IMG/VR virus record: IMGVR_UViG_2775506945_000003
Length of the DNA stretch: 64,000 nucleotides
Direction: 5' to 3' (one strand)
Source of the DNA: a virus
Taxonomy: Duplodnaviria > Caudoviricetes
Below the pieces are notes generated by a model. The model made no database searches and was not told the origin of the DNA. It was given only the letters and a program-made list of their open reading frames with translations. Of this stretch, positions 1,577 to 47,291 are shown in pieces; positions within the stretch are counted from its first letter, which is position 1, and every line of letters begins with the position of its first letter. Position numbers and translations under genes: made by a program.

Positions 1577-2214
1577 CCTGCCCTCCGCTGATAGCGGCTG
1601 CGCAGCTGGGCCCGAGTGGTGCGCTGGCCGCCATTGCCGTCCAACGCCTCCAGCTCCCGCTCGATCTCCTCGCGGCTCGGGGCCGCATAGATCGCCGTGC
1701 TGTTGAGGCTGGAATGGCCCAGGGTGCTCTTGACGATCAGCAGCGGCTCCTTCGCCTCGCTGTTGCGCACAATGTCCATGGCGCGGGTGTGCCGCATCCA
1801 GTGCGGGGACACCGGCAGCGTGATGCCCGCCTCCTCCGCCCAGTGCTTGAACCGCAGCTGTACAGCGCGCGCCGTCAGCGCTTCGCCGAAGCGGCCGGCG
1901 ATCAGCGGATCGGCGCCGTTCTGCGACGGGTTCATGTTGAGCAGCGCCACCAGGTGCATGCGCAGCGGCTTGGTCAGCAGCACGGAATGGTCTTTTGTGC
2001 GGCCCTTGCGGTGTTCGGCCGGGATGTAGAGATAGCCGGTCTTCAGTGCATCCCAGGTATCGGCCAGGGACGCGGCCAGGAACTCGCTGATACGGCAGCC
2101 GCTGTAGTACAGCGCGCTCATCAGGTGGTAATCCCGTTGGGCCAAATCGTCGTTGGTTTTGTAGGCGGCGCTGAACAGCTGATGCCGTTCCGCCGGCGTG
2201 AGATAGCGTTTCAT
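1573..2214 (-). CDS. Short tyrosine recombinase (catalytic domain only, FimB/FimE-sized)
   Basis: GCRISE (R), RKG (K), PHWMRH (HxxR), LGH, TAIY (Y); SD GAGGAG. Confidence 0.9.
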   Translation of the reverse strand: MKRYLTPAERHQLFSAAYKTNDDLAQRDYHLMSALYYSGCRISEFLAASLADTWDALKTGYLYIPAEHRKGRTKDHSVLLTKPLRMHLVALLNMNPSQNGADPLIAGRFGEALTARAVQLRFKHWAEEAGITLPVSPHWMRHTRAMDIVRNSEAKEPLLIVKSTLGHSSLNSTAIYAAPSREEIERELEALDGNGGQRTTRAQLRSRYQRRAG

Positions 2215-2233
2215 GTGGTTCTCCTCGAAATCG

Positions 2234-2572: not shown

Positions 2573-2748
2573 CGCTTGCTCCTCAACATGGCCAGCGCGA
2601 TACGCCTGATGCAGATCGCTAGCGCCGGGTTGTCCATTGCGGATTCGAACGATTGCCGCAGCCTGGCGCGCTTATGCGCCACGCGCAGCGCCTGCTCGGT
2701 CAGCTCTGCAGTGCCGGGGTCGAGTGGGAGAGCGAGTTGCCGTCGCAT
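2569..2748 (-). CDS. Small phage hypothetical protein (start MRRQLAL likely)
   Basis: Operon position; GGAG before ATG; start uncertain. Confidence 0.45.
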   Translation of the reverse strand: MRRQLALPLDPGTAELTEQALRVAHKRARLRQSFESAMDNPALAICIRRIALAMLRSKR

Positions 2749-3224
2749 GGCTTCACCACCAGGCTGCCGAACCGATTGCGCAACTCGACGATGGCGGCGA
2801 TCCACTCCATCGTTTCCCGGTTGAACTCGTTGAACTCGTCCTGGGTGACGATGCCGTCAGCCAGCGCATCGTTCATGCAGCTGTGCACGTCGCCAGCTTC
2901 GGCGTGGACCTTGTTCACCAGATCCAGCAACGCCGAGTCCGAGACGTTTGCGAGCCGGGGCAGCTGGTAGCGCGCGCTGTCGAACATCCGGCACAACGCG
3001 TCCAGCGGAGACAGGTCGCCGGTGGCGTGCAGCACATGGACAAAGTCGTCCAGCGTGGTTTTATGGTGATGGGCGCCAGGCGCCAGCTTGTTGGTCAGCA
3101 CGCCGGCGGAGACGCGCAGCAAGTTCGCCAGCTTGGTGATGCCAAAAGTTTTGGCCGAGAGGTGCAGCGCGCCAAACACGTCAGCCGGGGCTGACGGCAG
3201 GGTTGCCGCCATGGAAGTGTTCAT
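2700..3224 (-). CDS. Phage regulatory protein, CII family (186/HP1-like)
   Basis: LANLL..SAGVLTNKLAP and ALADGIVTQDE motifs; directly downstream of cro. Confidence 0.75.
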   Translation of the reverse strand: MNTSMAATLPSAPADVFGALHLSAKTFGITKLANLLRVSAGVLTNKLAPGAHHHKTTLDDFVHVLHATGDLSPLDALCRMFDSARYQLPRLANVSDSALLDLVNKVHAEAGDVHSCMNDALADGIVTQDEFNEFNRETMEWIAAIVELRNRFGSLVVKPCDGNSLSHSTPALQS

Positions 3225-3347
3225 TTGTGTTAACTCCTGTTGGTTCCCACTTGTCGTGGGTCAAACAGGTGCCGATACTGCAGTTGCCACACCGTAGTAA
3301 CAGCACCACCCGCGCCGCCTGCACCTAGCCCGTGCCGGCGGCGCACT

Positions 3348-3566
3348 TCATTTGCTCGGGTACAACACGTTGAGCACCGGGATATCCAGCGCAGCAGCAA
3401 TCCGTCGTGCGAGCTCTGGCGAGGCTTTCCCATTGCCGTTTTCCAGTTGGGCGATGCGCCCCTGGCTGCACCCACATTTCCCCGCCAGCTGCTTTTGGCT
3501 CAGCTTCAAAAGCTGGCGAGCCTCTCGTACCGTGTTCATCTGCGCTCTCATGGTTGCCAATGCCAT
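3348..3566 (-). CDS. Cro-like XRE regulator
   Basis: 72 aa HTH (LSQKQLAGKCGCSQGRIAQLENG), divergent from repressor. Confidence 0.85.
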   Translation of the reverse strand: MALATMRAQMNTVREARQLLKLSQKQLAGKCGCSQGRIAQLENGNGKASPELARRIAAALDIPVLNVLYPSK

Positions 3567-3645: not shown

Positions 3646-3996
3646 ATGAACATGGGACAACGCATCAAAATGGCCCGTCGGGCACGCAAACGCTCACAAG
3701 ACTGGCTTGGCGCCGAAGTGGGCGTGAACCAGTCCTCTGTCAGCCAGTGGGAGCACGGCCAGACTGAACCGACGTCGGAAAACCTTTCCCGCATCGCGGA
3801 CGTACTGCGCATCAGCTACGAATGGCTGGCAACCGGTCGTGGGGAAATGGAACTGAGTTTTTCACCAGTGGAGCTGCACATAGCGGAACCGCTGCTTGAC
3901 GATGATCAGCGCGAGTTGCTGGCGCTGTTCGAGCAGCTCCCTCGCGGCAAGCGCTCCATCCTGATGCAGTTCATGCGGGACTGGATCAACAAGTGA
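3646..3996 (+). CDS. CI-like XRE repressor without S24 autoprotease domain
   Basis: RIKMARR..SQDWLG..VNQSSVSQWE..EWLATGRGEM; only 116 aa. Confidence 0.85.
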   Translation: MNMGQRIKMARRARKRSQDWLGAEVGVNQSSVSQWEHGQTEPTSENLSRIADVLRISYEWLATGRGEMELSFSPVELHIAEPLLDDDQRELLALFEQLPRGKRSILMQFMRDWINK

Positions 3997-4460: not shown

Positions 4461-5183
4461 CTATGCAGATGTCAAATCTGTACTGATATTGAATAGCCTC
4501 CCGACCAGTTCCACCCTATTTCTCGCGGAGTGCAACATCCTGATTTTATTCAGCCTATCCCGTACCGTACGTACAGAAACACCCACGGCGCCGGCGATAT
4601 CCGCATCAGCCAGGCCCTCCAGCATGTGCTGCAGGATGTGACAATCACGTTTATCTAGGCCCGAGAGATCTGGCTGCCGATACCGCAGTCTCAAGGTGAC
4701 GGCCATCACGGCCGGCGCCAGGGCCTCCATCAGATGCAGTGACAGCGGATCTCGCTCGACCGCGGCGCCGGCGAACGACAGCACCAGCCTCACATCGCCG
4801 TGCTGCTCCATCCAGCTGACGCCGTTCAGCATGTTGTTGTTGGCGGCGGCCTGGATGAACCGGCGTAGCGTCGGATCGCTGCTGCCGGCGAGCAGCTTGG
4901 ACCACAGCAGCAGCTGGCCAGGCTGGCCATGCCATACCGGGTCCAGCTCCTGGGCGCCAATGCGAGCGTAGCCGGCCAGCCACTGCTCATCCCAGCCCAC
5001 GTTTGCCAGAATGAGGACCGTGCCACCCCGCTCAATGGCCAGAACGGCACGCGTACCGTCAGGCAACACCCGGCCCCACTCGGCAACAAACTGCCGCAGG
5101 CCTGCCATGTCATCGACCCACACGAGCTTTTCCAGCAAGGCCATCAGGTGCTCGGTGAGGCGTCCGATTTGTGATATCTGCAT
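4461..5183 (-). CDS. LuxR-family regulator with autoinducer-binding domain (LuxR solo)
   Basis: WxxxY-x8-DP ... W ... G pocket; C-terminal GerE HTH (LDKRD..IL..EG..IA..GVSVRTV). Confidence 0.85.
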   Translation of the reverse strand: MQISQIGRLTEHLMALLEKLVWVDDMAGLRQFVAEWGRVLPDGTRAVLAIERGGTVLILANVGWDEQWLAGYARIGAQELDPVWHGQPGQLLLWSKLLAGSSDPTLRRFIQAAANNNMLNGVSWMEQHGDVRLVLSFAGAAVERDPLSLHLMEALAPAVMAVTLRLRYRQPDLSGLDKRDCHILQHMLEGLADADIAGAVGVSVRTVRDRLNKIRMLHSARNRVELVGRLFNISTDLTSA

Positions 5184-10425: not shown

Positions 10426-11740
10426 CGCGCAGCACCTCCAGCCGCCCGGCCGGCACAAATCCGGGATGGCGCACGCCGTTGCGCGCCACCAGGTCCTCCG
10501 CCACATCCACGCCGCCGGTGGCCTGATAGGCCACCACCAGCGCCGGCAGCGTGGCGTGGGTGGTGATGATGTCCAGCTCCGCCAGCGTCGGCGCCCGCGC
10601 CGTCAAGCTGCGCGCCACCGCCTGGCGCAGCGCCTGCATGGCCGGATACAACGTGTCCGGCGCCGCCTGCAGCTCTACGTTCAGCGCGTCCAGGATCACT
10701 TCCCGCGCCTGCTGCAGTTCGGCCTTGCTCTCGAACTGCGCGCGTGGAATGGAGCGCGCCGCCTCGATCACCAGCACCCGGCGCACGTAGTCGGTAAGCG
10801 AGGGCGGCATCAGCGGCAAGGTCTGCGGGAGGCTGGATTGGCCGGCGCCGCGGCCGGCAGCCGGCATTCCGCCGGAAGATGCGCCGCCGCCAGCGCGCTG
10901 CTGGCTGGCGATGCGCTGGGCGGCAGCCACCGCCCAGCCTGGGCGGGAACTGGCCGCGGACGGCGCATCGGCTGGCCGCCGGCCGCGGTTGGGCTCCAGC
11001 GTCTGGTACGGGTGCAGCACGTCGCCGCGCAGCAGCTTGCGCCAGCTGGACAGCCCGGAAAACGGATTGCGCAGCCGGCCGATCAGCGACTGAATGCGGC
11101 CCTGAATTCGCCCCACCAGCGCCAGCGGCGCGTTGATGATGCGTTGCACGGCGTTGATGATGCGGTCCACCGCAGCCAGCGCCTGGTCCAGCGGCGCCAG
11201 GAAACTCTCCAGTGTGGCGCATACCTGCTCCACCACGGCTGCGGCTTCCTCAGCCAGCCCGGCGATGTCGTCCAACCAGCTGCTGGACAGCTCGTCCGCG
11301 CTGGTCGCCAGCGCCTCGTCCGCCGCCTCGTCCAGCTGGGCGTCGGTATCGTCCGTAGCGGCCGGCTCCAGGTTCTGGCCGGCCTCCACGAACACCATTT
11401 CCACCTCGGTGGCGCCGCCGACAAAATCCGGATCGCGCACCGTCGCCTTGCTCTGCAGCTGGCACAGCAGCCGGCCGTGGTAAGGGTGATCCAGCTCGCC
11501 CGGGCCTGGCGCTTCCAGGTCGTCCAGCAGCAGCTGCAGATCCTGCTTGGCCGTGGGGCCGATGAACAACGCGGTGACGCGGTACACCCGCGCCGCGCGG
11601 CCCAGATCCTCACCGTAGGGGATGTCCCGGTACGGGTATTCGTGCAGCACGTTGCGCCGGCCGACCTCCGCGCCGGCGCTCTTGAAGTAGAACGGCCGGC
11701 CGCGCCAGCTGCCATAGATCGGGTCCGGTTTGGCCGCCAT
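10418..11740 (-). CDS. Mu N-like DNA circularisation / tail protein
   Basis: SWRG.PF..GRR..HEYPYRD..EDLGR; C-terminal RNGVRHPGFVP. Confidence 0.9.
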   Translation of the reverse strand: MAAKPDPIYGSWRGRPFYFKSAGAEVGRRNVLHEYPYRDIPYGEDLGRAARVYRVTALFIGPTAKQDLQLLLDDLEAPGPGELDHPYHGRLLCQLQSKATVRDPDFVGGATEVEMVFVEAGQNLEPAATDDTDAQLDEAADEALATSADELSSSWLDDIAGLAEEAAAVVEQVCATLESFLAPLDQALAAVDRIINAVQRIINAPLALVGRIQGRIQSLIGRLRNPFSGLSSWRKLLRGDVLHPYQTLEPNRGRRPADAPSAASSRPGWAVAAAQRIASQQRAGGGASSGGMPAAGRGAGQSSLPQTLPLMPPSLTDYVRRVLVIEAARSIPRAQFESKAELQQAREVILDALNVELQAAPDTLYPAMQALRQAVARSLTARAPTLAELDIITTHATLPALVVAYQATGGVDVAEDLVARNGVRHPGFVPAGRLEVLRDG

Positions 11741-13926
11741 CAGTTGGCCCCCTGCATGGTGCGGCCCACGTTCATGGTGGTGGTCGGGCCCAGCGGCTTG
11801 GTGCGGGTTTCCACCTGCAACCCTGGCGGCGCGTGGATCACCACATCCACCGTGCCGCCTATCTTGGTCTGCTTCACCTGGTTCAGCAGCGCCTCGGTCA
11901 CTTGCTGGTTCTGGCCGAACACCTGGGCCAGATTGTCGCCGCCGACCGGCAGCTGCGGCCCCGGGGTCTTGAGACCAGCAAGCCAGGCCTCATTGCTCTT
12001 GCCCTGCTGCTGATCCATCAGGTACTTGCGCACCCATTGCTCTTCTTCGTTGTCAAAGCTGCCCAGTTGGTACCACGGCTTGTAACGGTTCCGTGCAGCC
12101 TCCACCAGACCTTTCCCGTATCGCTTCTCCAGGTCCGTGCGCACCTGTGCGCCCTTGTGCAGCTCGTCTTTTTCGTCCTGCGGGGTGTACAGCAAAGCGA
12201 TCATCGTTTGAATGGCCGCCAGCCAGCCGGCGGCCTTGGCTCCGGCCAATGTCTCGGCCTTCGCGACTGGTTTGACTCCCAGTTGCTCCAGCAGCCCGGG
12301 CTTGCGGGCGATGGCTTGCTCCACCGCTGAAGCACCCGCGCCACCTGGAAGTGGCGTGCCCCCCTTCCCTCCCCGCCCTCCAGTGAAAAAAGACAACAGT
12401 CCACCACCTACTACTGCCGTACCCAAGACTTGAATGGCAGTAGCTGCTCCATCAGCTGCCGTCGTCAACGTCGGGAACGTGCGTGCATATGGAATTATCT
12501 TGTCGACCAGGTCGCCAAACGCCTTGTTCAATGGCGACATAGCATCCTGATTCGCCATGGTCTTCTCGTTTTTCAGCTGATCCGCTTTGAAATCGGGCGT
12601 GGCGGCGATCAGGTCGTAATTGGTCTGCCCGGTGCCGGCAGCCTTGGGCAGCTTGGCCTCGATGTCCTTCACGTACTTGCGGTTGTTGATCAGCGCCAAT
12701 AGCGCCATCATCGCCTGCCGGTCCTGAACCAGCTTGCCCACGATGGAGCCTTGCCGCAGGTTCTGCAGACTCTCCCACACCGCGTCTTGGTCTTCGCCCT
12801 TGGCCTTGGCCTGCTGCATCCGCGCGGCGATCTTCTTGGACACCGGGTCCTTCTGCATCAGTCTGTCGATGATGGCGGCGAAAGCATCCACGCCATCCAT
12901 GCCCTTTTTCAAACGGGCTTGCGCCAGCTCCTTGGGCAGGTTGATGCCGATCTTTTTGGCATCGTGAACCGTGTCCTGGCTATTGATCTTCTGCAGCAGG
13001 TTCACCAGGTTATTGCCGGCTTCGTCCTTGGTGCCGGCGGTGATCACCGCCGCCTGGTTGAGCGCCAGCAACTTGCCCAGGCCCGCCATGCCGGACAGGC
13101 CGATGGAGCGCCCGGCCGCCATCTGCTGCGGCAGCCATTTGGACATGTCCTTGAGTTCGAAACCGCCTTCCTGGCCGGCCTTGATCGCCATATCCAGCGC
13201 CAGCGGCATCTGGTCTTCCTTGATGCCGAAGCTCTGCAACGAGCGGATGGCGATGTTGCCCAGCTCTTTGGAATCCGCGCCGCTAGCTGTCGAGTACTTT
13301 TGCAGCGTGGGCAGCAGCTTCATGGCCGTGGCCTGGCTCACTGCTCCGGACGCCAGCAGGTTGTCCAGCGTCTCCGCCGCGCCATCTATCGTGCCGCCAC
13401 CAACCCGCACCGCGCCGCGAATGGCTTTGTCCAGCTCGCCCATACCTTTCTGGCGGCCAGCCAGATTACGCTCCGCAAACGCCGTATTGGCCATGCCCGC
13501 CAGCCGGCGCTCATAACTCATGGTCTCCTTCATCGGCCCGCTCAACGCGTATCCGCCGACAGCCATGCCCACCGCCAAACCGCCCGCCTTGCGCAGCCGC
13601 TCGGTGGTTTTTTCCAGCGTGGAAAGCTGGCGCCACGCCTCCCGGCTTTCGCGCCGTACCTTGGAGAGGTCGCCCAGCAATCGGCCGAAATAGCTGCCGC
13701 GGCCAAGCTCCGCCATGGCCTGGCCAGCCTGGCGCATGGCGCGGCCAATCGCGCTACCCTGCAGCGTGGCCTCGCGTCCCACCCCGTGCAGCGAGCGGTT
13801 CACATTGGCCAGGCTGCGGCCGATGGTGTCGCTGTTGCGACCGGTGGCAGACGTTGCCTGCGCCAGCGCCTTCTCATAGGCGCTGGGGTCGGCAGCGATG
13901 CGGACTTTCAGTTCCAAGCTATCCAT
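11740..13926 (-). CDS. Tape measure protein
   Basis: 728 aa helical; GGFELKDM core; follows chaperone. Confidence 0.9.
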   Translation of the reverse strand: MDSLELKVRIAADPSAYEKALAQATSATGRNSDTIGRSLANVNRSLHGVGREATLQGSAIGRAMRQAGQAMAELGRGSYFGRLLGDLSKVRRESREAWRQLSTLEKTTERLRKAGGLAVGMAVGGYALSGPMKETMSYERRLAGMANTAFAERNLAGRQKGMGELDKAIRGAVRVGGGTIDGAAETLDNLLASGAVSQATAMKLLPTLQKYSTASGADSKELGNIAIRSLQSFGIKEDQMPLALDMAIKAGQEGGFELKDMSKWLPQQMAAGRSIGLSGMAGLGKLLALNQAAVITAGTKDEAGNNLVNLLQKINSQDTVHDAKKIGINLPKELAQARLKKGMDGVDAFAAIIDRLMQKDPVSKKIAARMQQAKAKGEDQDAVWESLQNLRQGSIVGKLVQDRQAMMALLALINNRKYVKDIEAKLPKAAGTGQTNYDLIAATPDFKADQLKNEKTMANQDAMSPLNKAFGDLVDKIIPYARTFPTLTTAADGAATAIQVLGTAVVGGGLLSFFTGGRGGKGGTPLPGGAGASAVEQAIARKPGLLEQLGVKPVAKAETLAGAKAAGWLAAIQTMIALLYTPQDEKDELHKGAQVRTDLEKRYGKGLVEAARNRYKPWYQLGSFDNEEEQWVRKYLMDQQQGKSNEAWLAGLKTPGPQLPVGGDNLAQVFGQNQQVTEALLNQVKQTKIGGTVDVVIHAPPGLQVETRTKPLGPTTTMNVGRTMQGAN

Positions 13927-14397: not shown

Positions 14398-14439
14398 ATT
14401 GTGGGTGGGGTTGGCAGGTGGGATAAGGGGTGGATTTAG
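14398..14439 (-). promoter_or_regulatory. Late promoter motif copy 1 (before tail chaperone / tape measure)
   Basis: CTAAATCCACCCCTTATCCCACC-N13-CACAAT. Confidence 0.7.
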
Positions 14440-14442
14440 ACG

Positions 14443-14680
14443 AAGAAAAGCCCCGCGGATGCGGGGCTCTATGCTGGTACGGCGGGCGTATTCCCCTTGC
14501 GGGTATTGTATTAGCCGCACACCCGGCCATAGGGCGCGCATTGTCCCACCGAATGGGCCAATGACAAACTATAGACGTAAAAATACCGCAAAGCTGACGG
14601 GTGCGGTATCCGCTGTTTGATTCTTAGGTGTTTTGAGCACCAAGTATAACGATAGCCCGCGTTGGCGGACTATATCAAGT
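14443..14680 (-). ncRNA. Structured leader resembling c4/CI-type phage antisense-RNA modules, without antirepressor gene
   Basis: TTGATA promoter, GGTG-CTCAAAA-CACC hairpin, terminator 14579-14610, stem with CCC-GCAA-GGG, terminator 14443-14468. Confidence 0.45.
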
Positions 14681-14706: not shown

Positions 14707-15552
14707 TCAGATCGGAACATCCATTAGCTCAGGCGCCTGATTAAAAAGCTGATCAATTTCTGGGAAAAAACGCCTCTGCAAACGCATCTGCCCAAATACA
14801 AAGCAGTGCGGACTCCTTCTCAAACTGTCAACCATCTTAAAACGACGTACATTGCTTATATTTTCAATATTTCTAATACGAACATACTCATTCAACCTTG
14901 CCATAAAACCATCAAAAGCATTAGCTCGCGCATGCAAGAGCAAATCTCTATTTAGATCAACCGCCCTGATAGTAAACTCCGCTCGAGCAAGGGTAGTTCC
15001 AGCTACGCCATACTTGGGAACCACCTCAAAAGTACCCGGTAAAAAATGGCCATTTAAAACCCCACCAATATCCAACTCCAAATACGATGCAGGATCATCC
15101 ACTCTAGGGTTAATAAAAACCGAATTCGAGAACGGGGGAGGAATCACCGGATCATTGCGTCCCCGATGAAACTCCACGCTATTATTATCATTATCAAAAT
15201 ACGCATACTTATTACCCTTCCTAACATTACACACCCCGCAAGAGAATATATAGTTACTCCAATCAAATGCTAGGTCGGGGAAATAATTTTTGGGATCAAC
15301 ATGTTCAATTTCGTCAGCCGCAGAGTCCCCACAGTACCCGCATCGAACAATTCCCGTGCTCATTATAGATAGTTGGCTTCTCACACTCGAAAAAGCCTTT
15401 TTCCAAGCGACCCTATCATTCTTTGCATCCCACAATTGAGATGCTCTTGCAACACGCCGGGAATAATCAAGCTCGGATGCCACCAGTTCACTCAATTGAT
15501 TCAACGCATCAACTGCATGTGGCGGCAATGGCAAGGCCGTCAGTCTTAACAT
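14707..15552 (-). CDS. ptuB: HNH endonuclease, Septu PtuB-like
   Basis: CGYC..EIEHVDPK..DWSNY..CGVCN..KG; low GC; downstream of ATPase. Confidence 0.7.
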   Translation of the reverse strand: MLRLTALPLPPHAVDALNQLSELVASELDYSRRVARASQLWDAKNDRVAWKKAFSSVRSQLSIMSTGIVRCGYCGDSAADEIEHVDPKNYFPDLAFDWSNYIFSCGVCNVRKGNKYAYFDNDNNSVEFHRGRNDPVIPPPFSNSVFINPRVDDPASYLELDIGGVLNGHFLPGTFEVVPKYGVAGTTLARAEFTIRAVDLNRDLLLHARANAFDGFMARLNEYVRIRNIENISNVRRFKMVDSLRRSPHCFVFGQMRLQRRFFPEIDQLFNQAPELMDVPI

Positions 15553-15564
15553 ATAAGTACCTTA

Positions 15565-16866
15565 CTAGCCTGCCACAGTTGAAGACGCTGTTGGCAGAGC
15601 CGTGCTCAGCTCAAGCAGACGCTTTTGCTCTTCCTCAGAAAGTTCACCCCTCAATGACTTTCTATTTAATACCGCCAATTCTTGCAACATTTCTTTTGAC
15701 GCTTCAGACCGTGTAACATTTACACCAAAAAATTCTGTCCCATAAGCATCCATTATCGATCCATAAACAAGTCGACTCAGCTCAGTGCCTTGAATTCTAC
15801 GTGACAGTTCATTCGAGCCAGGATTGGGAAGGTACCAAACCGAGTCAGCCCCCTGGCAGATTATTGGGCTATGGGTTGAAACAATAAATTGTATTCTCGG
15901 AAAACAACTCTTAAACCAAAGGCCAATTTTTTTCTGCCACGATGGGTGCAAATGAGTATCTACCTCATCAATTGCAACCACACCATCCAGCTCCAGGCAT
16001 TTGTCATGAACATTCAACGAGCTGATTACCTTCTCCATTCCGTACGACTTTGTCATTAATCTAAATATTTCAAATATCATCGACAAGACAGAACGATACC
16101 CATCACTCATTTGATCAACACGAACCAATGCACCCGACGCATCTAATATACGAACTGCATCACTAGTCACTTCACTTACTGTTGAGCCATGAGGCAACAG
16201 TTTCGAACCATTCAAGAACTCAATAAGTTTATCCAGCAGCCTTCCTTCAATTGCATAATTATTCTCAAGCTGCCTAACTTTCAGATCACTCAACCAACGC
16301 AACCCCTCAGTCAATGCGACATCCTCCCCAAAAGCAGAGAGGTGAGGAGCAAGTTTAGGATTTGAATAAAACAATCGATCAAGTGAAGCATCTCCACCTG
16401 AAAATCTTCTAAATGGCCCAAAAGATGCAGAGAACCAACCGGGGTTCGTCCCCCATATTGATCGCTCACCAACAATCTTACCCGCCCCACCTGAAACAAC
16501 CTCAGCGATATCACCGCCAAAACTACGTTCTACTTTCCTAATCTCAATATCAATATCAATTCGACTATTTGCACGCCCCTTTCCAGTGTAAATATCATTC
16601 ACACCGGCAACCAATTGCAAATTGATCTTCGCTTGATCATGTCCGCGCGGCAACCAATTCTGCCAATCCTGTCGCAAAGCAACAGACTCTCGCGGACCAG
16701 CGAAAGCTAAAGCTAACGACCTAATAATGCTTGACTTGCCCGCTCCATTGGCACCAAGAATTACATGCCACCCTGCACATTCCTCATTGAAATTGACCCG
16801 AAATTCGAAACTTCGAATAGATCTTACATTTGTCACTGCCAAGCGCCGAACATACATAGGCACCAC
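15565..16866 (-). CDS. ptuA: ABC-type AAA ATPase, Septu PtuA-like
   Basis: GANGAGKSS, MSDGY, IDEVDTHLHPSWQ, STHSP. Confidence 0.75.
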   Translation of the reverse strand: MVPMYVRRLAVTNVRSIRSFEFRVNFNEECAGWHVILGANGAGKSSIIRSLALAFAGPRESVALRQDWQNWLPRGHDQAKINLQLVAGVNDIYTGKGRANSRIDIDIEIRKVERSFGGDIAEVVSGGAGKIVGERSIWGTNPGWFSASFGPFRRFSGGDASLDRLFYSNPKLAPHLSAFGEDVALTEGLRWLSDLKVRQLENNYAIEGRLLDKLIEFLNGSKLLPHGSTVSEVTSDAVRILDASGALVRVDQMSDGYRSVLSMIFEIFRLMTKSYGMEKVISSLNVHDKCLELDGVVAIDEVDTHLHPSWQKKIGLWFKSCFPRIQFIVSTHSPIICQGADSVWYLPNPGSNELSRRIQGTELSRLVYGSIMDAYGTEFFGVNVTRSEASKEMLQELAVLNRKSLRGELSEEEQKRLLELSTALPTASSTVAG

Positions 16867-16917
16867 CTACTTTAAGTTGTGTATATGCGAAGTATTTCAT
16901 ACTTTAAGTTGCATGCC

Positions 16918-17001
16918 AAAAGAAGAAACCCCAGCCACAAGGCCAGGGTTCAGGTCGGTTGCCACACCGTAGCACTACAAGAGGAGAACGCCATGAAGCG
17001 C
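16918..17001 (-). ncRNA. Predicted ~85 nt sRNA whose 5' seed is antisense to the RBS of the short recombinase
   Basis: -10 CATACT at 17013-17008; 18/21 complementarity to 2206-2226; terminator 16918-16950. Confidence 0.5.
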
Positions 17002-17045
17002 AGGGTCAGTATGGCCGGCGCCTGGCGGTGCAAACAGGGGTGGAG

Positions 17046-18523
17046 TCAGATCAGTTCCGCCGGGTCTCCAGCCATGGTCATATCCACCTTGTTGCCCTTC
17101 AGCTCCACCTCACCCACCGTGCCGGCATTGGCCACCAGGTAGCGCTGGCCGCTGTCAGTTTCAAAAATCAGCGTCACGTCCTCCAACTGCTGCAACGCCA
17201 CCACATCCTCGTCACTATTAATCCGGCAGTAATAATCCGTACAGATTGTATACTTCCGGCATGGAAAAAATCGATGTGCGCAAGCTTGAACTGGCCGCCC
17301 GTGAGCAGCTGAGGCGTACCGCTATCCGGATGTACAAGCGAGGCCGGTCTCAAGCCAGTATTGCCGAAGAACTCGGGCTGCGCCGCCCCACCATTTCCGC
17401 CTGGGTGGTGCGTGAGGCAGCACTAGGTGCGCAGGGATTCAAAGAACAGAAGCGCGGTCGCGCCGAAGGCACCGGCCGTCGGCTGACCGAGGCGCAGGAA
17501 GCCCGGATCAAGCAGGACATCGTGGATCGCACGCCAGACCAGATGAAGCTGAGGTTTGCCCTGTGGAGTGCTCAGGCGGTCAAGGCTGTAATCAAGCAGA
17601 TGTTTCTGATCGATCTGCCGATCCGTACTGTCCGTCTGTACTTGGCCCGCTGGGGCTTTACGCCGCAGCGCCCGCTCAAACGCGCTTATGAGCAGCGACC
17701 GGCAGCAGTCGAGAAATGGCTCAAGGAGGAATACCCGGCTATCGTCGCGCGTGCCAAAGCGGAAATGGCTGAAATCAGCTGGGGCGACGAATCGGCGGTG
17801 TCGAGTGTTGAGCACTTTCCGCGTGGCTACGCCCCAAAAGGCCAAACCCCAGTTCTGGTGTTATCCCAATCGAAAAGAGCGCGCATCAACTTGATTTCGG
17901 CCATTACCAACCAAGGCAAGATGCGCTTCATGCTGTACCGGGAGACCTTGACGGCCCGGGTGCTGATCAAGTTTCTGATGCGGCTGATCCGTGATGCTGG
18001 CGGCAAGAAGGTGTTCTTGATCCTCGACAACTTGCGCGTGCATCACAGCAAGCTGGTGCAAGCATGGTTGGAGGAGGAAGAGAACAAGAAGGCGATTGAG
18101 TTGTTCTTCCTGCCCAGCTACTCACCGGAACTGAACCCGGATGAATACTTGAACGGCGACCTGAAGGCCAGAATGAGCGCAGGTGAGCCGGTTCGATCAG
18201 ACGGTCAACTTCAAGGGAAAGTGCTGTCCCATTTACGCTCATTGCAGAAGCAGCCGGCCAGAATCCGGTCGTACTTCCGGCATGAAAAAATCCGCTACGC
18301 GGCATGAGCTTTCTGTACGGTATTTGACTGCCGGATTAATAGCATGGCGCAGCGAAAATTTCACCTCTCCGCCGATCACCTCCTTGGTGGCCAGACCGCA
18401 GGGGCCGTTGGCGTCCTTGATCTGCTCGCGGATCTTGCCGCCCACCTTCAGGCTGGCGTCGCCCTCGCTACGTTTTTTCTGGCCATTGAGCGTGATGTAC
18501 ACCACGCCGGTCATGCGTGCCAT
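17046..18523 (-). pseudogene. Tail tube protein (Mu M-like) interrupted by IS630
   Basis: Removing the IS and one TA restores frame ...FSLRHA-SDEDVV... Confidence 0.9.
17218..18339 (+). mobile_element. IS630-family element copy 1 (transposase 17246-18307)
   Basis: TIR TTAATCCGGCAGT; TA duplication at CTAG; DDE motifs WGDES, ILDNLRVH, SPELNPDE. Confidence 0.95.
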
Positions 18524-18534
18524 ATCGGGTTCCT

Positions 18535-20016
18535 TTACAGACGGTACTGCACGGAGGCCGCGAAGGTGACGAACTGGTTGACCAGATTGGGCGGCAGCAC
18601 GGCGTTGACGCGGTCCACGTCGGCGTCGCTGCGCATCACGATCAGGTCCTTCTTGAACTGCTCGGTGTCCTCCACGATGCCGGCGAATTCCAGCTCGCGG
18701 TGCAGGGCGATCAGTTCGGCGCGGATGATGGACGGCGTAACCAGGGCCTGGCCGGGGGAAACGTTGATGCCGTCGTTGGCCAGCTTGTGGCGCGGGAAAC
18801 GCAGGGCGATGCGGCTGCGCACGGCGTAGCGGTAGTAGTCGGCCGTCCACTTGGTTTCCAGGCGCAGCAGGCTTTCGTCATCCACGCCGAAGGGCGATTT
18901 CTGGTAAGTGGTGATCACCCGTTCCAGGATGATTTTGCCGCCGCTGTCCACCACGGTGGAGCTGATGCCGTCGCGCAGCAGCAGCTCGCGCTCGTTGCGG
19001 CCGAATCGGTCTTTCAACCGCGGCGCCAGCACGCCGGGCACCTCCACCGCGCGCAGCGGCAGCGCGGGATCGATCGCGCCGTGGAATTCGCACACGCAGG
19101 CCCAGGCGGCGGCGCGCACCGGCGCCCAGGTGGGGCAGCCCTTCAGGCCCCAGGCGCTGACGTGGGGGCTATTACGTGCCGCGCCCCAGGTCGTGAGCTG
19201 GGCGTGGGTGCCGTCCCGCGCGGTGAACACGTGGCCGGTGCGCATGTTCATGCCACTCCAGCGGCCATCCATGTCCGCCTCCAGCGCGGCCAGGCTGGCG
19301 CCGTCGCTGTAGGGGCTGACGATGCTGTAAAACCAGTCCTCCGCCACAGCGGCCAGCGCCGCGCCCACATCCGGACTGCCGGCGCCGCCGGCGAGGTTGG
19401 CGCAGACGGCGGTGATGCCGTCCGGCAGCACGTCCTCGTCGTAGTAGGCCACGGCCAGTTCCATGCCGTTGCCGGCGTCGCCCTTGTGCCGGCAGGCCAC
19501 CGATACCACGCCGGCGGCGGCGCTGGCGGTCACGGGCAGATCCGCGTTGGCGTTGATGGCGTCGGCCAGCTTGGCGGCCAGCGCGGCGTTGGTGTCGCCG
19601 ATGCTGGCGGCCGCACGCACCCGCTCGCCGCCAATCCAGGCAGTGAGCACGCCGGGCGTGGTGACGGCGCCGGTCAGGGTGATGGTTCCGCTGGCGGCCA
19701 CGCCGGCGGGCAGATCCTCCAGCGCCACGGCGTAAACATCGATCAGGCCATAGCGGGCCTTCACCGCATCAAGGCCGCGCGCCATGGCGTGCAGCATGGA
19801 GCCGCGGCCGTACTTGGTGGCGGCGTCGTCGGCGTTGAGGATGCGGGACGGGACCAGCGCCGCGGTCTTGCCGGCAGGCAGGCGCTGGCCCAGAACCAGC
19901 AGCTTGCGCTCCATCTGCGGCAGGCCGCGCACGGCCTTGGTGTGGTCGATCTCCACATAGACGCCGCCGGTGCGGACGCCCACGGGGATAGACATGTAGG
20001 TGATGTTGTCGGGCAT
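18535..20016 (-). CDS. Tail sheath protein (Mu L-like)
   Basis: GVYVEID, YGRGSMLH, LLRDGIS, RVITTYQ, FPRHKLA. Confidence 0.95.
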   Translation of the reverse strand: MPDNITYMSIPVGVRTGGVYVEIDHTKAVRGLPQMERKLLVLGQRLPAGKTAALVPSRILNADDAATKYGRGSMLHAMARGLDAVKARYGLIDVYAVALEDLPAGVAASGTITLTGAVTTPGVLTAWIGGERVRAAASIGDTNAALAAKLADAINANADLPVTASAAAGVVSVACRHKGDAGNGMELAVAYYDEDVLPDGITAVCANLAGGAGSPDVGAALAAVAEDWFYSIVSPYSDGASLAALEADMDGRWSGMNMRTGHVFTARDGTHAQLTTWGAARNSPHVSAWGLKGCPTWAPVRAAAWACVCEFHGAIDPALPLRAVEVPGVLAPRLKDRFGRNERELLLRDGISSTVVDSGGKIILERVITTYQKSPFGVDDESLLRLETKWTADYYRYAVRSRIALRFPRHKLANDGINVSPGQALVTPSIIRAELIALHRELEFAGIVEDTEQFKKDLIVMRSDADVDRVNAVLPPNLVNQFVTFAASVQYRL

Positions 20017-23919: not shown

Positions 23920-26484
23920 TTACAGCGCCGCGCGGGCGGTGCTGGAGTACACGATTACGCTGGTGAAGCGGTTGCGCACCGGACGCGGCACGGCGATGGC
24001 GTTGTACTCCTCGCCATAGGCGGCTTTCTTGCCGATCGGATGGCCATCCGGCCCCGTCAGCTCGAACGGCTCACCCGTCACGAACGGCTTGGCGATGGTG
24101 TAGCCCAGCACATTGCGCTGGCCCATCAGAATGCGCTCGTCGCCCAAGTCCACGCCTGGCGCGTTGGTGCCGTATGCCGGGATGTCCTTGATCGCCTCCA
24201 GGTCGCCCTGGGCGTTGGTGTCGCTTCCGTTGCGCTTTTGGCTCGCCACGAACTGCTCGGCGTTGGTGGCGGTGTCGTTCAAGGTCGGCGACATCAACAG
24301 GAATTCCGGCGCCACATAACGCTGGCTGTTCATCATCGCCTTGCGGCTGCCCACCTTTTGAATCAGGCCGTTCAGCCACTTCTCCGTCGTCACGCCGCCC
24401 TGCGGATCCAGGTCAAACTTGGTGACGTTCGTCGCCGCGGCGTAGCTGATGGCGTTGGTGCCGGTGGCGGCCGGGGCCACGGGCTGGCCGGCCTGGTCCA
24501 CGAACTGCAGCGTGCCCAGGTTGAAGCTGAGCACGCGCCAGTAGGTGCCGGCTACCTGCTTGCCGCTGCCGTCCCATTGCTTGATCTGCACGCTATTCAA
24601 CGTGACGGTGATCGGGTTTTCCGGCAGGCCCACGGCGCTGCCCTGCATGTCCCGCGCCTGGAAGGGACGCACCACCGGCCACTGCGCCAATTTGACCAGC
24701 GATTTGCCGCTGCCCAGCTGGGAGGTGAGGTTTTCATTGTTCACCGGCACGGCCAGATAGCTGTCCGATGCGCGCTGCAGCTCGTTGCAGATCCGGCGCG
24801 CCACCAGCTCGCGCAGTACGCGGGCGTTACTCTCGATATTGCGGCCCATCGCGTCCCAGTTCAGCGCGGAGGCGCGGGTGAAGAACTGCACCTCGTTGGT
24901 GATCGACAGCGCCAGCTTCATCGGGGTGACGGACACCGTATCCATTGCCTGGGTGATGCCGGCAAACGGGATCGACTGGCCCTCGTAGACCACGCCATCG
25001 TTCATCACCTGGCTGACGTCGCGCAGTTCATACGGGATCTGCGTGGTCGCGGCGCCGGAGAAGTCGGTCAGGGTCTGCACCAGGGACAGCACGTTGAGGT
25101 CCGAAAGTGCTTCGCGGATCACCTCGCGCTGCACGCCCAGCGGCAGCGCGGTGTTGCCCATGTCCAGCGTGCCCTGCCCCTGCGCCAGCACGCGGTATTC
25201 CGCGTCCAGCCGCGGCGCGTGGATGCGGTCGTATTCGGCCAGCACGCGCTGGCAGAACGGTGGCAGCGTCTGCTTGGCATCCAGGTGCAGCTGGCCGGCG
25301 GCGGACGACTTGGCCAGGTTCTCGCGGAAGAACTCGCTGAGCTTCTTCACGCCGTCGGCGATCACGGTGATCTGCGGCGAGCCGGCAGGGCCGTAACCCA
25401 GCTGGGCCAGCTGCCGGGCGGCGGCCACCTCGTTGGCGTTCTTGATCTGCATCTCGGCCAGCGCTCGCACCTGGTCGTCGGTGGTGTCGGCGGTGATCAC
25501 GCCGGCGGCGGCCTCGGCCAGCGCCTTCTTGGTGGCATCGTCCAGACCTGCGGCGGCGGCGATGGTTTCGGCCAGCAGCTTGCGCTTGCCTTCGGTGGTT
25601 TCGGCCAGCTGCTTGGCGGCGGTGTCCCGCTCGGCCAGCGCCTTGGCCACGGCCGCGCCGACGTCGGCCTGGTTCACGCCGCCGACGGACAGCTGGATCA
25701 CCGGCGCCGGGCCATTCGCCGGCAGCTTGGAAAGCTGCTCGGACAGCTGAATGGCCGCCTGCTCCAGCTGCTCGCACAGCTGCTTGGCCTGGGCTTCGTC
25801 GGTGATGCCTTCCAGTTGGGCCTCGGCCAGCGTTTTGACGGCGGCCACCGCCTGCTCGGACAGTTTGCGCGCGGCTAGGGCCTCCAGCAGCGCCTTCAGA
25901 TACTTGTTCATCGTGGTTTTCGCCTCGGAAAGGAGAGTTCGCGCCAGCTCCGGGTGGAGCAGCAATGGGATGTCCGCGCCGGAATCGCACGACAGCGTGA
26001 CGGGGTCCAAGCGCTTGATCACCGGACGCACGGTGAGGCCTGCACCCAACAGGACGGGGCCATGGAGCCGGCCCTGTTCGTTGTCCTGCCAGTTTTCGGA
26101 GAATTCAGCGGAGAGATAGCGGAAGCCGCGGCCCTTGACCGCATCGCGGCCAAAGTCGGTCCACTCCACCAGCGCGCGCAGCCGGCCGCCCTCCACCGCC
26201 AGCCGTAGGATCTTGGCGGCGGCGCCGTCGCCAGGCTGGTGGTTCACGTCCAGGAAGATATCGGTGCCCACCACGCCGGCGTCGAAATTGCGGACCATGG
26301 CTAGCAGCATGTCGCGGGAGATATCGAAGCGCCCATAGCGCGGATCGGTAAACGAACCCTCCCGGGTGAGCGTCACCCAGCTGGTGGGCTTGGCGTCCGG
26401 CACGTCGGCCATACCGGCCAGCAGGCGGACTACCTGGCTGGGCTGGGTGTTTTCAGAGAGTTGGAAGTGTCGGGGTACTTGCAT
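23920..26484 (-). CDS. Fused Mu I-like protease / scaffold / major capsid protein
   Basis: DVNH, VEWT, YLSAEF, GAGLTVRP protease; Ala-rich scaffold; capsid-like C-terminal half. Confidence 0.85.
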   Translation of the reverse strand: MQVPRHFQLSENTQPSQVVRLLAGMADVPDAKPTSWVTLTREGSFTDPRYGRFDISRDMLLAMVRNFDAGVVGTDIFLDVNHQPGDGAAAKILRLAVEGGRLRALVEWTDFGRDAVKGRGFRYLSAEFSENWQDNEQGRLHGPVLLGAGLTVRPVIKRLDPVTLSCDSGADIPLLLHPELARTLLSEAKTTMNKYLKALLEALAARKLSEQAVAAVKTLAEAQLEGITDEAQAKQLCEQLEQAAIQLSEQLSKLPANGPAPVIQLSVGGVNQADVGAAVAKALAERDTAAKQLAETTEGKRKLLAETIAAAAGLDDATKKALAEAAAGVITADTTDDQVRALAEMQIKNANEVAAARQLAQLGYGPAGSPQITVIADGVKKLSEFFRENLAKSSAAGQLHLDAKQTLPPFCQRVLAEYDRIHAPRLDAEYRVLAQGQGTLDMGNTALPLGVQREVIREALSDLNVLSLVQTLTDFSGAATTQIPYELRDVSQVMNDGVVYEGQSIPFAGITQAMDTVSVTPMKLALSITNEVQFFTRASALNWDAMGRNIESNARVLRELVARRICNELQRASDSYLAVPVNNENLTSQLGSGKSLVKLAQWPVVRPFQARDMQGSAVGLPENPITVTLNSVQIKQWDGSGKQVAGTYWRVLSFNLGTLQFVDQAGQPVAPAATGTNAISYAAATNVTKFDLDPQGGVTTEKWLNGLIQKVGSRKAMMNSQRYVAPEFLLMSPTLNDTATNAEQFVASQKRNGSDTNAQGDLEAIKDIPAYGTNAPGVDLGDERILMGQRNVLGYTIAKPFVTGEPFELTGPDGHPIGKKAAYGEEYNAIAVPRPVRNRFTSVIVYSSTARAAL

Positions 26485-30751: not shown

Positions 30752-31651
30752 CTATATCCCATCTGCAAATACCAATTCCACATAGCTAAGCGTATTCGGA
30801 TGCGCCGGCCACGGACAAGCCTCGCGGCTGGGGTACACGCCAGGCCCCAGCCCGTAACGGTCGGCGGTCGCGTGGGTGTCGCACACGTCGCGGACGCGGT
30901 GGTTGGGCGACAGCCGAAACCTCACCCCAGCCACGCCATCGACTTGGAAGGCCGCGCCCATATAGGCCTCGCCGTGGGCGCGGTTGATCTCGCTGCGAAA
31001 CACCCGCTCCGCCTGGTACACCACGCCCTTGCCGTTGACCGGGTCCGCCTCCCCCGTCATCAGGCTGCGCACCCGCCGGCCCAGGTTGCCGCCGCGGGCG
31101 CCGTTGTAGGCGCTGGCGATGTCGGCCGGCACGCCCGCCCCGCGGCCCATGCTGCGCAACATCGCCTGGTGGGCGCTCTCGCCGTTGATTACGGCGAACT
31201 GGATATGGTCGGTCAGTACCTGGGCGGCGTTGCGGTTCAGCCGCCACAGGCGATCCGACAGCTGTAGGCCGTCGGCAGCGGTGAAGGAACGGACGAATGC
31301 GACAGCGGAGTGATTGACGGCGAACAGGGTGGACTCCGGCAGCGCGCCGGCGAACACGCCCGCCCCGACGCATGCGGACTGCTCGATGCGGCGGTACAGC
31401 TGGCCGTCTCGCCGCTCTTGCAGCCGGCGCAGCTCCTCGCGGACATGGGACAGCACGTTCTGTAGTTGCTCCAGGCCCACCCTGTCGCCCTGCCCGGCCG
31501 CGCGCTCGATATGCTGCACGATCAGGTCGCCGGCGTCGTCGTAGGTCTCGATCAGCTCGTCCACCGCCGTGTCGTTCAACCGGTTCCGCTGTTCTACAGC
31601 CGCCAAGGTGGCGGCGCGAATGGTGGCGGCGCGGTCCAGGTTAGTGGGCAT
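30752..31651 (-). CDS. Head morphogenesis protein (Mu F-like minor capsid)
   Basis: LSDRLW, AERVFRSEINRAH, D.CD, PAHPNT. Confidence 0.8.
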   Translation of the reverse strand: MPTNLDRAATIRAATLAAVEQRNRLNDTAVDELIETYDDAGDLIVQHIERAAGQGDRVGLEQLQNVLSHVREELRRLQERRDGQLYRRIEQSACVGAGVFAGALPESTLFAVNHSAVAFVRSFTAADGLQLSDRLWRLNRNAAQVLTDHIQFAVINGESAHQAMLRSMGRGAGVPADIASAYNGARGGNLGRRVRSLMTGEADPVNGKGVVYQAERVFRSEINRAHGEAYMGAAFQVDGVAGVRFRLSPNHRVRDVCDTHATADRYGLGPGVYPSREACPWPAHPNTLSYVELVFADGI

Positions 31652-33053
31652 GGTCTAGATCCGTGGCCGACTCCCCTTTGCGACCGTTGCCAGGGGTGAT
31701 TTTGACCGTAGGCGCGGCGCCATCCTCGGGATATGGGTCGTAGTGGGCGGCGTCGCTCTCGCGGCGGGCCTCCACCGTGGCCGGGTTGTAGCCCACCTCC
31801 TCCCAAACCATCGATTTCGGCAGGCCCAGCGCAGACAGTTTGAGGGCGCGGTCTACCGTTTGGCTGGCTGTTTCGGTGCGGCGCTCGGCGAAGGTGACTT
31901 TGAATTCCTCCGCGTCCGGGTTGATGCCCCGGAGCAGCAGCTGCAGGCGGAATCCGAACTCGTACACCCAGGCCAGCGTGTCCTGCAGCTGGTCCACTTC
32001 GTCGTAATAGTCCCGCTTCAGGTCCTCAAGGATGTCCCGCGCCATGCCGTCGGTGTAGCCCATCAAGCCCTTGGGCAGCGGGGTGCCGGCGAAGAACGAA
32101 TCCAGCAGGTACAGCACGTCCTGGATCTCGCCTAGGGCGGCATCGCCCTGCACAGCGCTGACGGAACCTTTCTTGTTCAGGTAGAAATCGGTCTGGATCA
32201 GCTCGGCGTTCGCCTCCACCCGGTCCTGGTAGGCCTGCAACTCCGCCTCCGTGGCCCCTTCCAGCACGTGGGACAGGCGCAGCGGCGCGCGGTGTTTGCG
32301 GCGGATCACCATGTCGGTGTCGGTCATTCGCAACTTGCGCCAGATCTCGCGGCTGGCGTCCAGGAACGGCCGGCCCAGCGCGCCCATGTCATCGAAATTT
32401 TCCGGGTCCAGTCTGGCCAGGGTGAGCTGCCACAGCGGAAAAGTGGCCAGCTCCAGGCCGTTGGCCAGGTCCATCTGGGTGTAGGCGGCGCGCGGGTCCA
32501 GGAACTGGCCGTTGATGCCGACATTGGGCCGCATGGTCTCGGTGGGCATGCGCACGGCAGACACAACGTTGCCGGCGGCATCCAGTACCCACTGCATGGG
32601 GAGGTTGCCCTCTTTCAACAGGCCACGGGCGTCGCTTTTCAGCTTCTCCGCCCGGTTCAGTTGCAAGCGGCTGACGAAGCGGCCCCACTCTGCGCGCAGC
32701 GGGCTGGTGGGGTCGGTCTGCAGCAGCACCAGCCCGCCGCGGGTGACGTCCCGCGCCACCCTCACATGGATACGTTTCACCCGGCCGTCCGCCAGGTCCA
32801 TCTGGCGGATGTCCAGGATGGTGGCGCGTAGGTCGTGGTCCACATAGAACTGCCGGTACATGGCCCGGATCTGGTTCTCCGGCGTTGAGCGGCGGCCGCT
32901 TTCGCTGGTGACGCCAGCGGGCTCGCCGGGGAGCGTAGGCGTTGAACTTTCCGGGTCCGTCCGTGGCGGCGCTGCAGGCGGAGCGGACTGGCTGGTGGCG
33001 GGCGGTGTCTGGCGGCGGCCAAAACGGGCCAGCAGAGAATCAAGAAGCGGCAT
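31641..33053 (-). CDS. Portal protein
   Basis: ~470 aa between TerL and gpF-like gene. Confidence 0.75.
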   Translation of the reverse strand: MPLLDSLLARFGRRQTPPATSQSAPPAAPPRTDPESSTPTLPGEPAGVTSESGRRSTPENQIRAMYRQFYVDHDLRATILDIRQMDLADGRVKRIHVRVARDVTRGGLVLLQTDPTSPLRAEWGRFVSRLQLNRAEKLKSDARGLLKEGNLPMQWVLDAAGNVVSAVRMPTETMRPNVGINGQFLDPRAAYTQMDLANGLELATFPLWQLTLARLDPENFDDMGALGRPFLDASREIWRKLRMTDTDMVIRRKHRAPLRLSHVLEGATEAELQAYQDRVEANAELIQTDFYLNKKGSVSAVQGDAALGEIQDVLYLLDSFFAGTPLPKGLMGYTDGMARDILEDLKRDYYDEVDQLQDTLAWVYEFGFRLQLLLRGINPDAEEFKVTFAERRTETASQTVDRALKLSALGLPKSMVWEEVGYNPATVEARRESDAAHYDPYPEDGAAPTVKITPGNGRKGESATDLDHAH

Positions 33054-33267
33054 TGTCGGGAGCCTCGATTGGGGTAACAGACACGACATCGCGCCAGCCG
33101 TTGATCATGCCGGCGTCCAGTAGGTCGCGGATCAGTTGGTCGTCGCCAAATGCCTCGCGCCAGGCGTCGCGCATCTGGGCTGCGCGCTGGCGCTGCGCCG
33201 GGGTGAGCGGCGGAGGCGGCGGCAAGGTTTCATCCGGGTGGGCCCTCTTGTATTTGCCGTAGCTCAT
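33040..33267 (-). CDS. Small phage hypothetical protein
   Basis: Coupled to TerL stop. Confidence 0.55.
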   Translation of the reverse strand: MSYGKYKRAHPDETLPPPPPLTPAQRQRAAQMRDAWREAFGDDQLIRDLLDAGMINGWRDVVSVTPIEAPDNAAS

Positions 33268-36769: not shown

Positions 36770-36788
36770 CACCCCCCCAAAAAAAGCT

Positions 36789-42647: not shown

Positions 42648-42725
42648 AACGATCTTAAACCATTGATTTTACTGGACTCATGAATTTTTCCAGCTATTTG
42701 ACACCCCCATTTGTCCCCCTTTAGC

Positions 42726-47099: not shown

Positions 47100-47291
47100 T
47101 GCATAAAGTTGACCGGATCTCCGGCGCAATAGGCGTAAGAATTGACGCCGCCGGCGCCGAACGGACTCAGGCTATCCGGACAGTGAAAACGCATCAAGGC
47201 GGGTCTGTGCCCGGTAGCCATGGCCCAGATACGTCGCGCAGCTGACGGGGTCGAGACTCTCTCCGTTAAACCCCAGAACACTGTTGTTCAT
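47100..47291 (-). pseudogene. Frameshifted, truncated paralog of the RHS-core gene
   Basis: MNNSVLGFNGESLDPVS / ALMRFHCPDSLSPFGAGGVNSYAYCAGDPVN in two frames. Confidence 0.8.

Follow-up and report, generated by a model that had tools for sequence, protein, structure and literature searches.

A conserved candidate transcription unit after the tail tube gene of a Chromobacterium prophage and the short core it shares with the cro-cII leader

Does the 96-nt stretch that follows the tail tube gene of a temperate Chromobacterium prophage give rise to a small RNA and, if it does, on what would such an RNA act? The original prediction for positions 16918-17013 of the window (the whole stretch of viral DNA analysed, 64,000 nt in length) held that a minus-strand unit with a promoter and terminator of its own encodes a trans-acting RNA that silences a small recombinase gene about 15 kb away, connecting the tail locus to the control of excision or lysogeny. 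Here we analyze the architecture of this unit, its conservation across related prophages and its complementarity to the start regions of phage and host genes. The results point to a promoter-to-terminator unit that likely has its 5′ end near 17001, bring out a short core sequence held in common with the leader between the cro-like and CII genes, and argue against the recombinase as a target.

Genomic setting, layout and conservation of the unit

The window is part of a host genome that consists of a single contig of 5.14 Mb, with Chromobacterium piscinae, Paludibacterium and Pseudogulbenkiania as its nearest named relatives. Judged from its genes, the prophage is a temperate phage of Chromobacterium, a mosaic of Mu-like head and tail genes and a 186-like cI/cro/CII early region. 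Its structural genes all lie on the minus strand and include the first late gene (34919-35878), a portal-like ORF (31641-33089), a Mu-like protease/scaffold ORF (23920-26484), the tail sheath (18535-20016), a tail chaperone gene with its ATG at 14349 and the tape measure (11740-13926). In the early region, cI is encoded on the plus strand (3646-3996), and the minus strand carries a cro-like gene (3348-3566), a CII gene of the CP76 family (2700-3224) and, beyond two small ORFs, the 213-aa tyrosine recombinase ORF of the original prediction (1573-2214; Pfam Phage_integrase, E = 1.4e-20). A full-length tyrosine integrase of 338 aa with a SAM-like N-terminal domain is encoded near the prophage head end (37488-38504, minus strand), so the recombinase of the early operon is a second, shorter one. 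In Paludibacterium G028 (loci L022/L023) the homologue of the 213-aa recombinase is spread over two overlapping frames (residues 1-130 and 118-213) and is therefore probably frameshifted there.

The tail tube gene exists in two minus-strand pieces, an N-terminal one at about 18343-18523 and a C-terminal one at 17046-17214 (positions 68-115 of the 117 in Pfam Tail_tube). Between the two sits a 1128-bp element of the IS630 family (17215-18342) with a DDE_3 transposase and 31-nt inverted repeats. The insertion point is a TA, and the reading frame runs on across the target; the element has 47 near-identical full-length copies in the genome, at least three of them in the window. Because the tube gene is split in this way, the prophage is probably defective in its tail.

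Three further features of the prophage region and its surroundings were recorded. A LuxR-type regulator with an autoinducer-binding domain is encoded between a tail fibre assembly gene and cI (4461-5183, minus strand). A low-GC ORF of 296 aa (35942-36832, minus strand) has no Pfam, PHROG or PADLOC match, is flanked by a conserved 191-aa ORF and the putative first late promoter, and is absent from this place in C. piscinae and in G012. An inverted repeat free of mismatches, about 85 nt long and with some 300 nt between its arms (at about 42700-42800 and 43090-43190), includes a sequence resembling a start region, and a third start region of similar appearance is found at 47283; the repeat may represent an invertible segment or, alternatively, duplicated gene starts.

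The unit begins on the minus strand one base past the tube stop codon (17046-17048). An upstream block, TCCACCCCTGTTTG, occupies 17031-17044, which corresponds to about -43 to -30 relative to the predicted start, and is followed exactly 17 nt later by the -10-like hexamer CATACT (17013-17008), found where the original prediction had placed it; a G at 17001 sits 7 nt after the hexamer. A simple sigma-70 scan reported no promoter at CATACT because no -35 is present, in keeping with the poor -35 conceded from the outset. From this start, a predicted RNA of about 84 nt (16918-17001) would comprise three modules, namely a 5′ region that holds a CU-rich tract (the proposed seed, 17001-16981), then a small hairpin and lastly the hairpin of the terminator with its U tail. 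Its predicted fold has an energy of -30.2 kcal/mol (z = -2.5), and the RNAs predicted for the relatives fold into the same three-part layout.

The intrinsic terminator that had been proposed for the 3′ end of the unit was recovered by a terminator scan (T1, 16918-16951, minus strand). Its stem-loop (16951-16926) has 11 pairs, 6 of them G-C, and a loop of 4, and is followed by CTTCTTTT; in an alignment of seven sequences, two of its 10 predicted pairs show compensatory changes. The locus thereby combines the G+C-rich stem-loop, the T-run and the compensated stem of an intrinsic (Rho-independent) terminator, and a terminator directly follows the core described below in 7/7 sequences, even where a second terminator lies farther downstream. 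A search of the whole window against Rfam gave 0 matches at the gathering threshold, the best sub-threshold match being rnk_pseudo (20.1 bits against 55), and no entry on this element was among those listed in literature searches.

Several other ways of reading the stretch were tried and rejected. A plus-strand ORF (16959-17312) with an SD and ATG reverse-complementary to the seed is without a Pfam or PHROG match, runs opposite the tube C-terminus and has its last third inside the insertion element. A read-through extension of the tube protein does not fit the frame of the conserved block, which differs between the window and Paludibacterium, and a long-range pairing of the first block with the core meets an A-to-C change that is uncompensated in two lineages.

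In searches of 61 and 68 genomes, five related prophages were found to keep the element as a block, and one IMG/VR contig has it as well; about five independent lineages underlie the comparisons reported here. Searches of genome contigs yielded 5 loci and searches of IMG/VR 13. The phage collection gave no DNA match and a single distant Klebsiella match to the tube. Among the matches listed in a 14-mer scan of IMG/VR, only known lineages passed the context filter and one further match lay inside a coding region, and the metagenome pattern matches were without the element's context in 25/25 cases. Where the element is kept, its parts follow the tube stop in a fixed order: a block TTCC[A/C]CCCCTGTTT, a free spacer, the hexamer (GAGAAT or GAAAAT in the relatives), a variable stretch of 25-39 nt that holds the CU-rich tract, the core, and a hairpin with its T-run. 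G012 has degenerate versions of both the upstream block and the core. Comparison with two other Chromobacterium lineages, not independent of each other, revealed 0/46 and 0/46 differences across 17001-16956, against 17/166 and 24/166 (10-14%) in the coding part of the tube gene, 5/41 and 4/41 in the promoter region and 7/38 and 7/38 in the terminator region. The lack of change beside such diverged flanks argues for selection on 17001-16956.

The block and hexamer belong to a larger family. The motif TCC[AC]CCCCT[GT][AT]T has five exact copies in the 5.14-Mb genome, four of which fall in the prophage within 21.5 kb, all on the minus strand (35921, 26561, 17044 and 14434). Copies 1, 2 and 4 precede the first late gene, the protease/scaffold gene and the chaperone gene, respectively, and copy 3 follows the tube gene. 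Each of the four is followed exactly 17 nt later by a hexamer ending in T (TGAAAT, TACCCT, CATACT and CACAAT for copies 1 to 4). Five relatives from at least three named genera carry 4, 4, 4, 4 and 3 syntenic copies with the same spacing, the copy absent from G012 being represented there by a degenerate version, and the 17-nt spacing holds for 23/23 exact-motif copies in six phages. In 6/6 phages the first late gene has its conserved ATG 6 nt past the hexamer of copy 1; this leaves no space for a leader and places the transcription start on the ATG, so that the first late gene appears to be leaderless and the family can be read as late promoters depending on a phage factor. Transferred to copy 3, the same geometry would set the RNA start at 17001 ± 1, as originally predicted. 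The sequence CATGG, resembling the CATG of the seed, stands just past the hexamers of copies 1 and 4. The prophage yielded no activator or sigma factor that would serve the family: a search for Mor/C-type activators gave Pfam Mor matches only at 4.82 and 4.87 Mb, in other prophages, and orf191 was assigned no family.

The fourth copy (TCCACCCCTTATCC, 17 nt, CACAAT; 14398-14434, minus strand) is preceded by a second terminator, T2 (14441-14467, minus strand), and between T1 and this junction lies a slot for accessory genes. Here it holds an inserted low-GC cargo (14707-16919, minus strand; GC about 0.42-0.46) with a promoter-like site of its own (16919-16891, from a promoter scan) and the adjoining ATPase and HNH nuclease genes of a Septu system, PtuA (15565-16866, minus strand; PADLOC E = 9.7e-149; Pfam AAA_21/AAA_15) and PtuB (14707-15552, minus strand; PADLOC E = 1.8e-82; Pfam HNH). 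The content of the slot differs in every lineage, the same slot being found in L013-L017: Pseudogulbenkiania has a MazF/PemK-like ORF, G012 has P22_AR_N and SAP-domain ORFs, C. piscinae and G021 have ORFs without an assigned family, and G009 has other ORFs. In Paludibacterium the slot is empty and the chaperone leader follows at once, and the junction of T2 and the fourth promoter in the window matches the single terminator-promoter junction found there.

These data bear on the alternative that survives best, in which the site is punctuation only, the 3′ untranslated region and terminator of a capsid-sheath-tube operon, with the block a decayed duplicate of the chaperone promoter and no independent RNA of any function. 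Such an account fits the position directly past the tube stop, the strong terminator and the outcome of the sigma-70 scan, and it is consistent with the distant relatives (Eikenella-type, L039/L040), which have a terminator only after the tube gene; moreover, the block of copy 3 (..CTGTTT.) deviates from the other three (..CTTATCC) and might hence be a weak or dead duplicate. A decayed promoter is hard to reconcile, however, with a block, 17-nt spacing and hexamer that are kept in at least three named genera while the spacer between them varies, or with the unchanged 46 positions downstream of the predicted start in Chromobacterium, and punctuation does not explain why the 13-nt core recurs in the cro-cII leader. 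We regard this alternative as unlikely, though as one to be taken seriously.

A core sequence common to the unit and the cro-cII leader

The unit had also been said to carry the loop of the CII leader. That observation holds in the form of a 15-nt identity, CTACGGTGTGGCAAC, between 16972-16958 and 3297-3283, both on the minus strand. The core of the unit, ACGGTGTGGCAACCG (16956-16970, minus strand), could form a CGGU/ACCG stem around a GUGGCA loop, and its second copy, ACGGTGTGGCAACTG (3281-3295, minus strand), forms the tip of hairpin 2 in the cro-cII leader (3225-3347). The 5.14-Mb genome has two copies of the 12-mer CGGTGTGGCAAC, both of which lie in the prophage and on its minus strand, and this sharing is beyond chance. 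Four of the five relatives likewise carry two exact prophage copies at the same two places, one in the leader, 1.1-1.3 kb upstream of the recombinase gene, and the other after the tube gene; in G012 a variant accompanies the single exact copy, which is found 1.7 kb upstream of that phage's recombinase gene. The core is found at the same position of the leader in 5/5 relatives, and across seven phages its 13 nt are intact in 13 of 14 copies, all 13 of which can form at least three CGGU/ACCG pairs.

The consensus fold of the cro-cII leader comprises three hairpins with 30 pairs, 7 of which show compensatory changes, and on this covariation the leader is a structured RNA. The loop of hairpin 1, GGGCTAG, is almost invariant, and hairpin 3 pairs with part of the cII SD region in the Chromobacterium lineages. 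No partner complementary to the core was found, either in the window at up to three mismatches or in the genome as an exact 12-mer. Since the two copies are identical and not complementary, the simplest reading is that of one common reader, a protein or the polymerase that transcribes them. Readings of the core as a sigma-54, Ogr-type or sigma-70 element were rejected, inspection by eye revealing no fitting second element.

An alternative at the level of DNA would make the 13-nt core an operator or recombination site for a phage DNA-binding protein such as CII, Cro or the small recombinase. In the 14 copies from seven phages the stem of the core shows one-sided changes only and no compensated pair, which leaves room for recognition as DNA; the invariance of the core, the direct orientation of both copies and the start of the accessory slot a few bases downstream would all suit such a site. 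The covarying arms of the long stem that bears the leader core at its apex point instead to RNA, only the outer 4 bp of the core are symmetric, and the boundary of the slot falls after the terminator, not at the core. Taken together, we judge recognition as DNA to be quite unlikely.

Complementarity to the recombinase start region

The pairing at the heart of the original prediction joins the first 21 nt of the predicted RNA to the SD and start codon of the 213-aa recombinase ORF (2206-2226, minus strand). The complementarity was reproduced at 18 of 21 positions, with 17001-16981 opposite 2226-2206 and both SD and ATG covered, and no other non-self site in the 5.14-Mb genome complements the seed with so few mismatches. 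That genome contains nine other sites at 17/21 and a total of 71 non-self sites at 16/21 or better, a distribution from which about one 18/21 site is expected. Inside the window, seven other pairs between a start region and a sequence elsewhere attain at least 18/21 (118 SD-bearing candidates, true repeats aside).

The 21-nt seed was paired with each of 7797 SD-bearing start-region candidates of the host genome, and these potential targets were ranked by duplex energy. The recombinase, at -27.7 kcal/mol, came first among the 119 candidates of the window and 75th of all 7797 (best -35.4, mean -17.1, s.d. 3.9 kcal/mol). Duplexes computed with the 45-nt 5′ part, which gave it rank 839/7797, involved implausibly long pairings and were left out of the verdict. 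Five host sites hold perfect complements to the seed of 13-15 nt, against 9 contiguous nt in the recombinase, and at least three of the five are arranged as SD, spacer and ATG.

Covariation of seed and target was sought across relatives and none was seen. The seed is frozen in three Chromobacterium lineages, in which the recombinase target matches it at 18, 17 and 16 of 21 positions. A 6 × 6 matrix of mid-regions against recombinase start regions revealed no preference for the own partner, pairing across lineages being as good as pairing within them; set against shuffled sequences, pairing with the own recombinase was the better in 5/6 mid-regions. The recombinase start region ranks 8/118 here and 24/87, 35/110, 47/97, 9/100 and 4/118 in the other five phages. 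That of the neighbouring orf112 homologue ranks 1 and 2 in G021 and G029 and 22, 49 and 11 elsewhere, and a rough combination of the recombinase and orf112 ranks, resting on about four independent lineages, is not significant.

As the original prediction itself had cautioned, part of the match is generic: the reverse complement of the seed is close to the consensus start region of the organism. The pairing with the recombinase start region is most likely coincidental, because the seed, with its anti-SD-like CU tract and the palindrome CATG, is antisense to a near-consensus start region. On paper, an RNA with such a 5′ end 'targets' many genes.

This same property could be taken as the function of the RNA, the CU-rich tract and CAUG pairing with many GGAGAACGCCAUG-type starts and damping a set of genes late in infection. 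The five perfectly complementary host sites, with the SD-spacer-ATG arrangement in at least three, are compatible with such a role, as is the CU-rich tract (TCCTC or similar) present in all lineages, and the layout of a single-stranded tract, a hairpin and a terminator with U tail would by analogy resemble that of chaperone-dependent base-pairing RNAs. Identity of the seed is confined to Chromobacterium, though, and outside this genus the short CU tract alone persists, so no common target can be named; the shared core is again left unexplained. We therefore consider a generic anti-start-region RNA improbable.

For a dedicated RNA that blocks translation of the recombinase, neither the top non-self match by mismatch count, the first place in the window, the advantage over shuffled sequences nor the high ranks of the orf112 homologue in two phages outweighs the 75th place genome-wide, the longer perfect complements in the host, the seven pairs in the window that are at least as good, an invariant seed facing a drifting target, the lack of own-versus-other specificity, the ranks of 4 to 47 in other phages and the predicted pairing of the first 5 nt of the seed within the RNA itself, and we hold it to be highly improbable. 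The terminator and U tail of a trans-acting base-pairing sRNA are present; conservation of the seed beyond Chromobacterium and a top-ranked target that is kept or compensated were not found in the lineages compared. A target outside the first rank and a lack of covariation had been named beforehand as findings that would speak against the silencing of the recombinase, and as far as computation can tell both are what was observed. What stands of the proposed transcription unit is its conserved architecture, its covarying terminator and its link to the cro-cII leader.

A working model and its relation to known phage systems

Our best explanation, in which we place almost as much belief as doubt, is that the 96-nt feature is a small conserved transcription unit made of the third late-type promoter, an RNA of about 84 nt and a strong terminator, with the 13-nt core as its working part. 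The sequence architecture, its conservation and the copy numbers are observed; that the promoter is active and late, that the RNA is made and that it has any function are inferred. The third of four phage-specific late-type promoters, directly past the tube stop, would start an RNA near 17001 that stops after about 84 nt at the strong intrinsic terminator, and the same terminator would also end the capsid-sheath-tube transcript and insulate the accessory slot. The working part of the RNA would be the 13-nt core and not the 21-nt seed. A single factor, either a protein or RNA polymerase, may recognise both copies of the core, in which case the late RNA and the CII leader could be competitors for that factor, or the factor could act on the late RNA at the neighbouring terminator.

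A more ambitious version of this model, which we think rather unlikely, would have the late RNA carry its copy of the apical hairpin of the CII leader as a mimic and, by competing for or recruiting the reader of that hairpin, tie the onset of virion production to switching off or resetting the lysis-lysogeny module. We know of no RNA mimic circuit of this kind described for temperate phages.

A comparable arrangement among known systems is that of lambdoid phages, whose late promoter PR′ and terminator tR′ give the 6S RNA, called StxS in Shiga-toxin phages, where a regulatory role of its own is reported for this short RNA (PMC7547250). The candidate unit would share with PR′-tR′ a late-type promoter, an intrinsic terminator within about 80-200 nt and a short RNA as the default product, the distance from the predicted start to the end of the T-run being about 84 nt here and the promoter activity presumed. 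It differs from PR′-tR′ in the number of promoter copies, four here instead of one, and in its place amid the structural genes with another promoter of the same family to follow; no Q-like antiterminator gene was noticed among the ORFs scanned for general families, and, unlike the constitutive PR′, activity here would be expected to depend on an activator.

Two copies of a short hairpin also call to mind nut/boxB, the antitermination sites of lambdoid phages. The core, which may form a short hairpin with an invariant loop, is likewise present in two copies per phage, one of them between cro and cII, and in at least three lineages has both copies upstream of a terminator-like hairpin. The second copy here belongs to the late structural genes and not to a leftward early operon, and what resembles boxA is no more than a loose CU-rich run. 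The prophage yielded no arginine-rich protein of the N type; orf78 (ORF 2569-2805) was considered as an antiterminator and rejected, its arginine-rich N-terminus not being conserved and the alignments with relatives starting at residue 16-21.

The immunity RNAs of P4 (CI RNA) and of P1/P7 (c4) are complementary to their repeated targets. The candidate RNA would be similar to them as a short phage RNA tied to repeated short blocks in a leader, and departs from them in that the blocks are identical and have no complementary partner. With the chaperone-dependent base-pairing sRNAs of prophages it would have in common a single-stranded tract, a terminator hairpin with U tail and, on the strength of the promoter-like block, perhaps a promoter of its own; it departs from them in a seed that is conserved within the genus only and in the lack of any conserved target among those examined.

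Within the working model, the link to the CII leader is the part most deserving of experiment. Apart from any RNA, the locus provides a well-bounded accessory slot, running from a terminator to the next late promoter, in which defence genes can usefully be sought. Provided that the unit is transcribed, the Mu/186-mosaic prophages of the Chromobacteriaceae would gain a family of late promoters, one member of which would drive a leaderless first late gene, together with a late small RNA and a connection, at the level of sequence, from the structural genes to the CII module of lysogeny.
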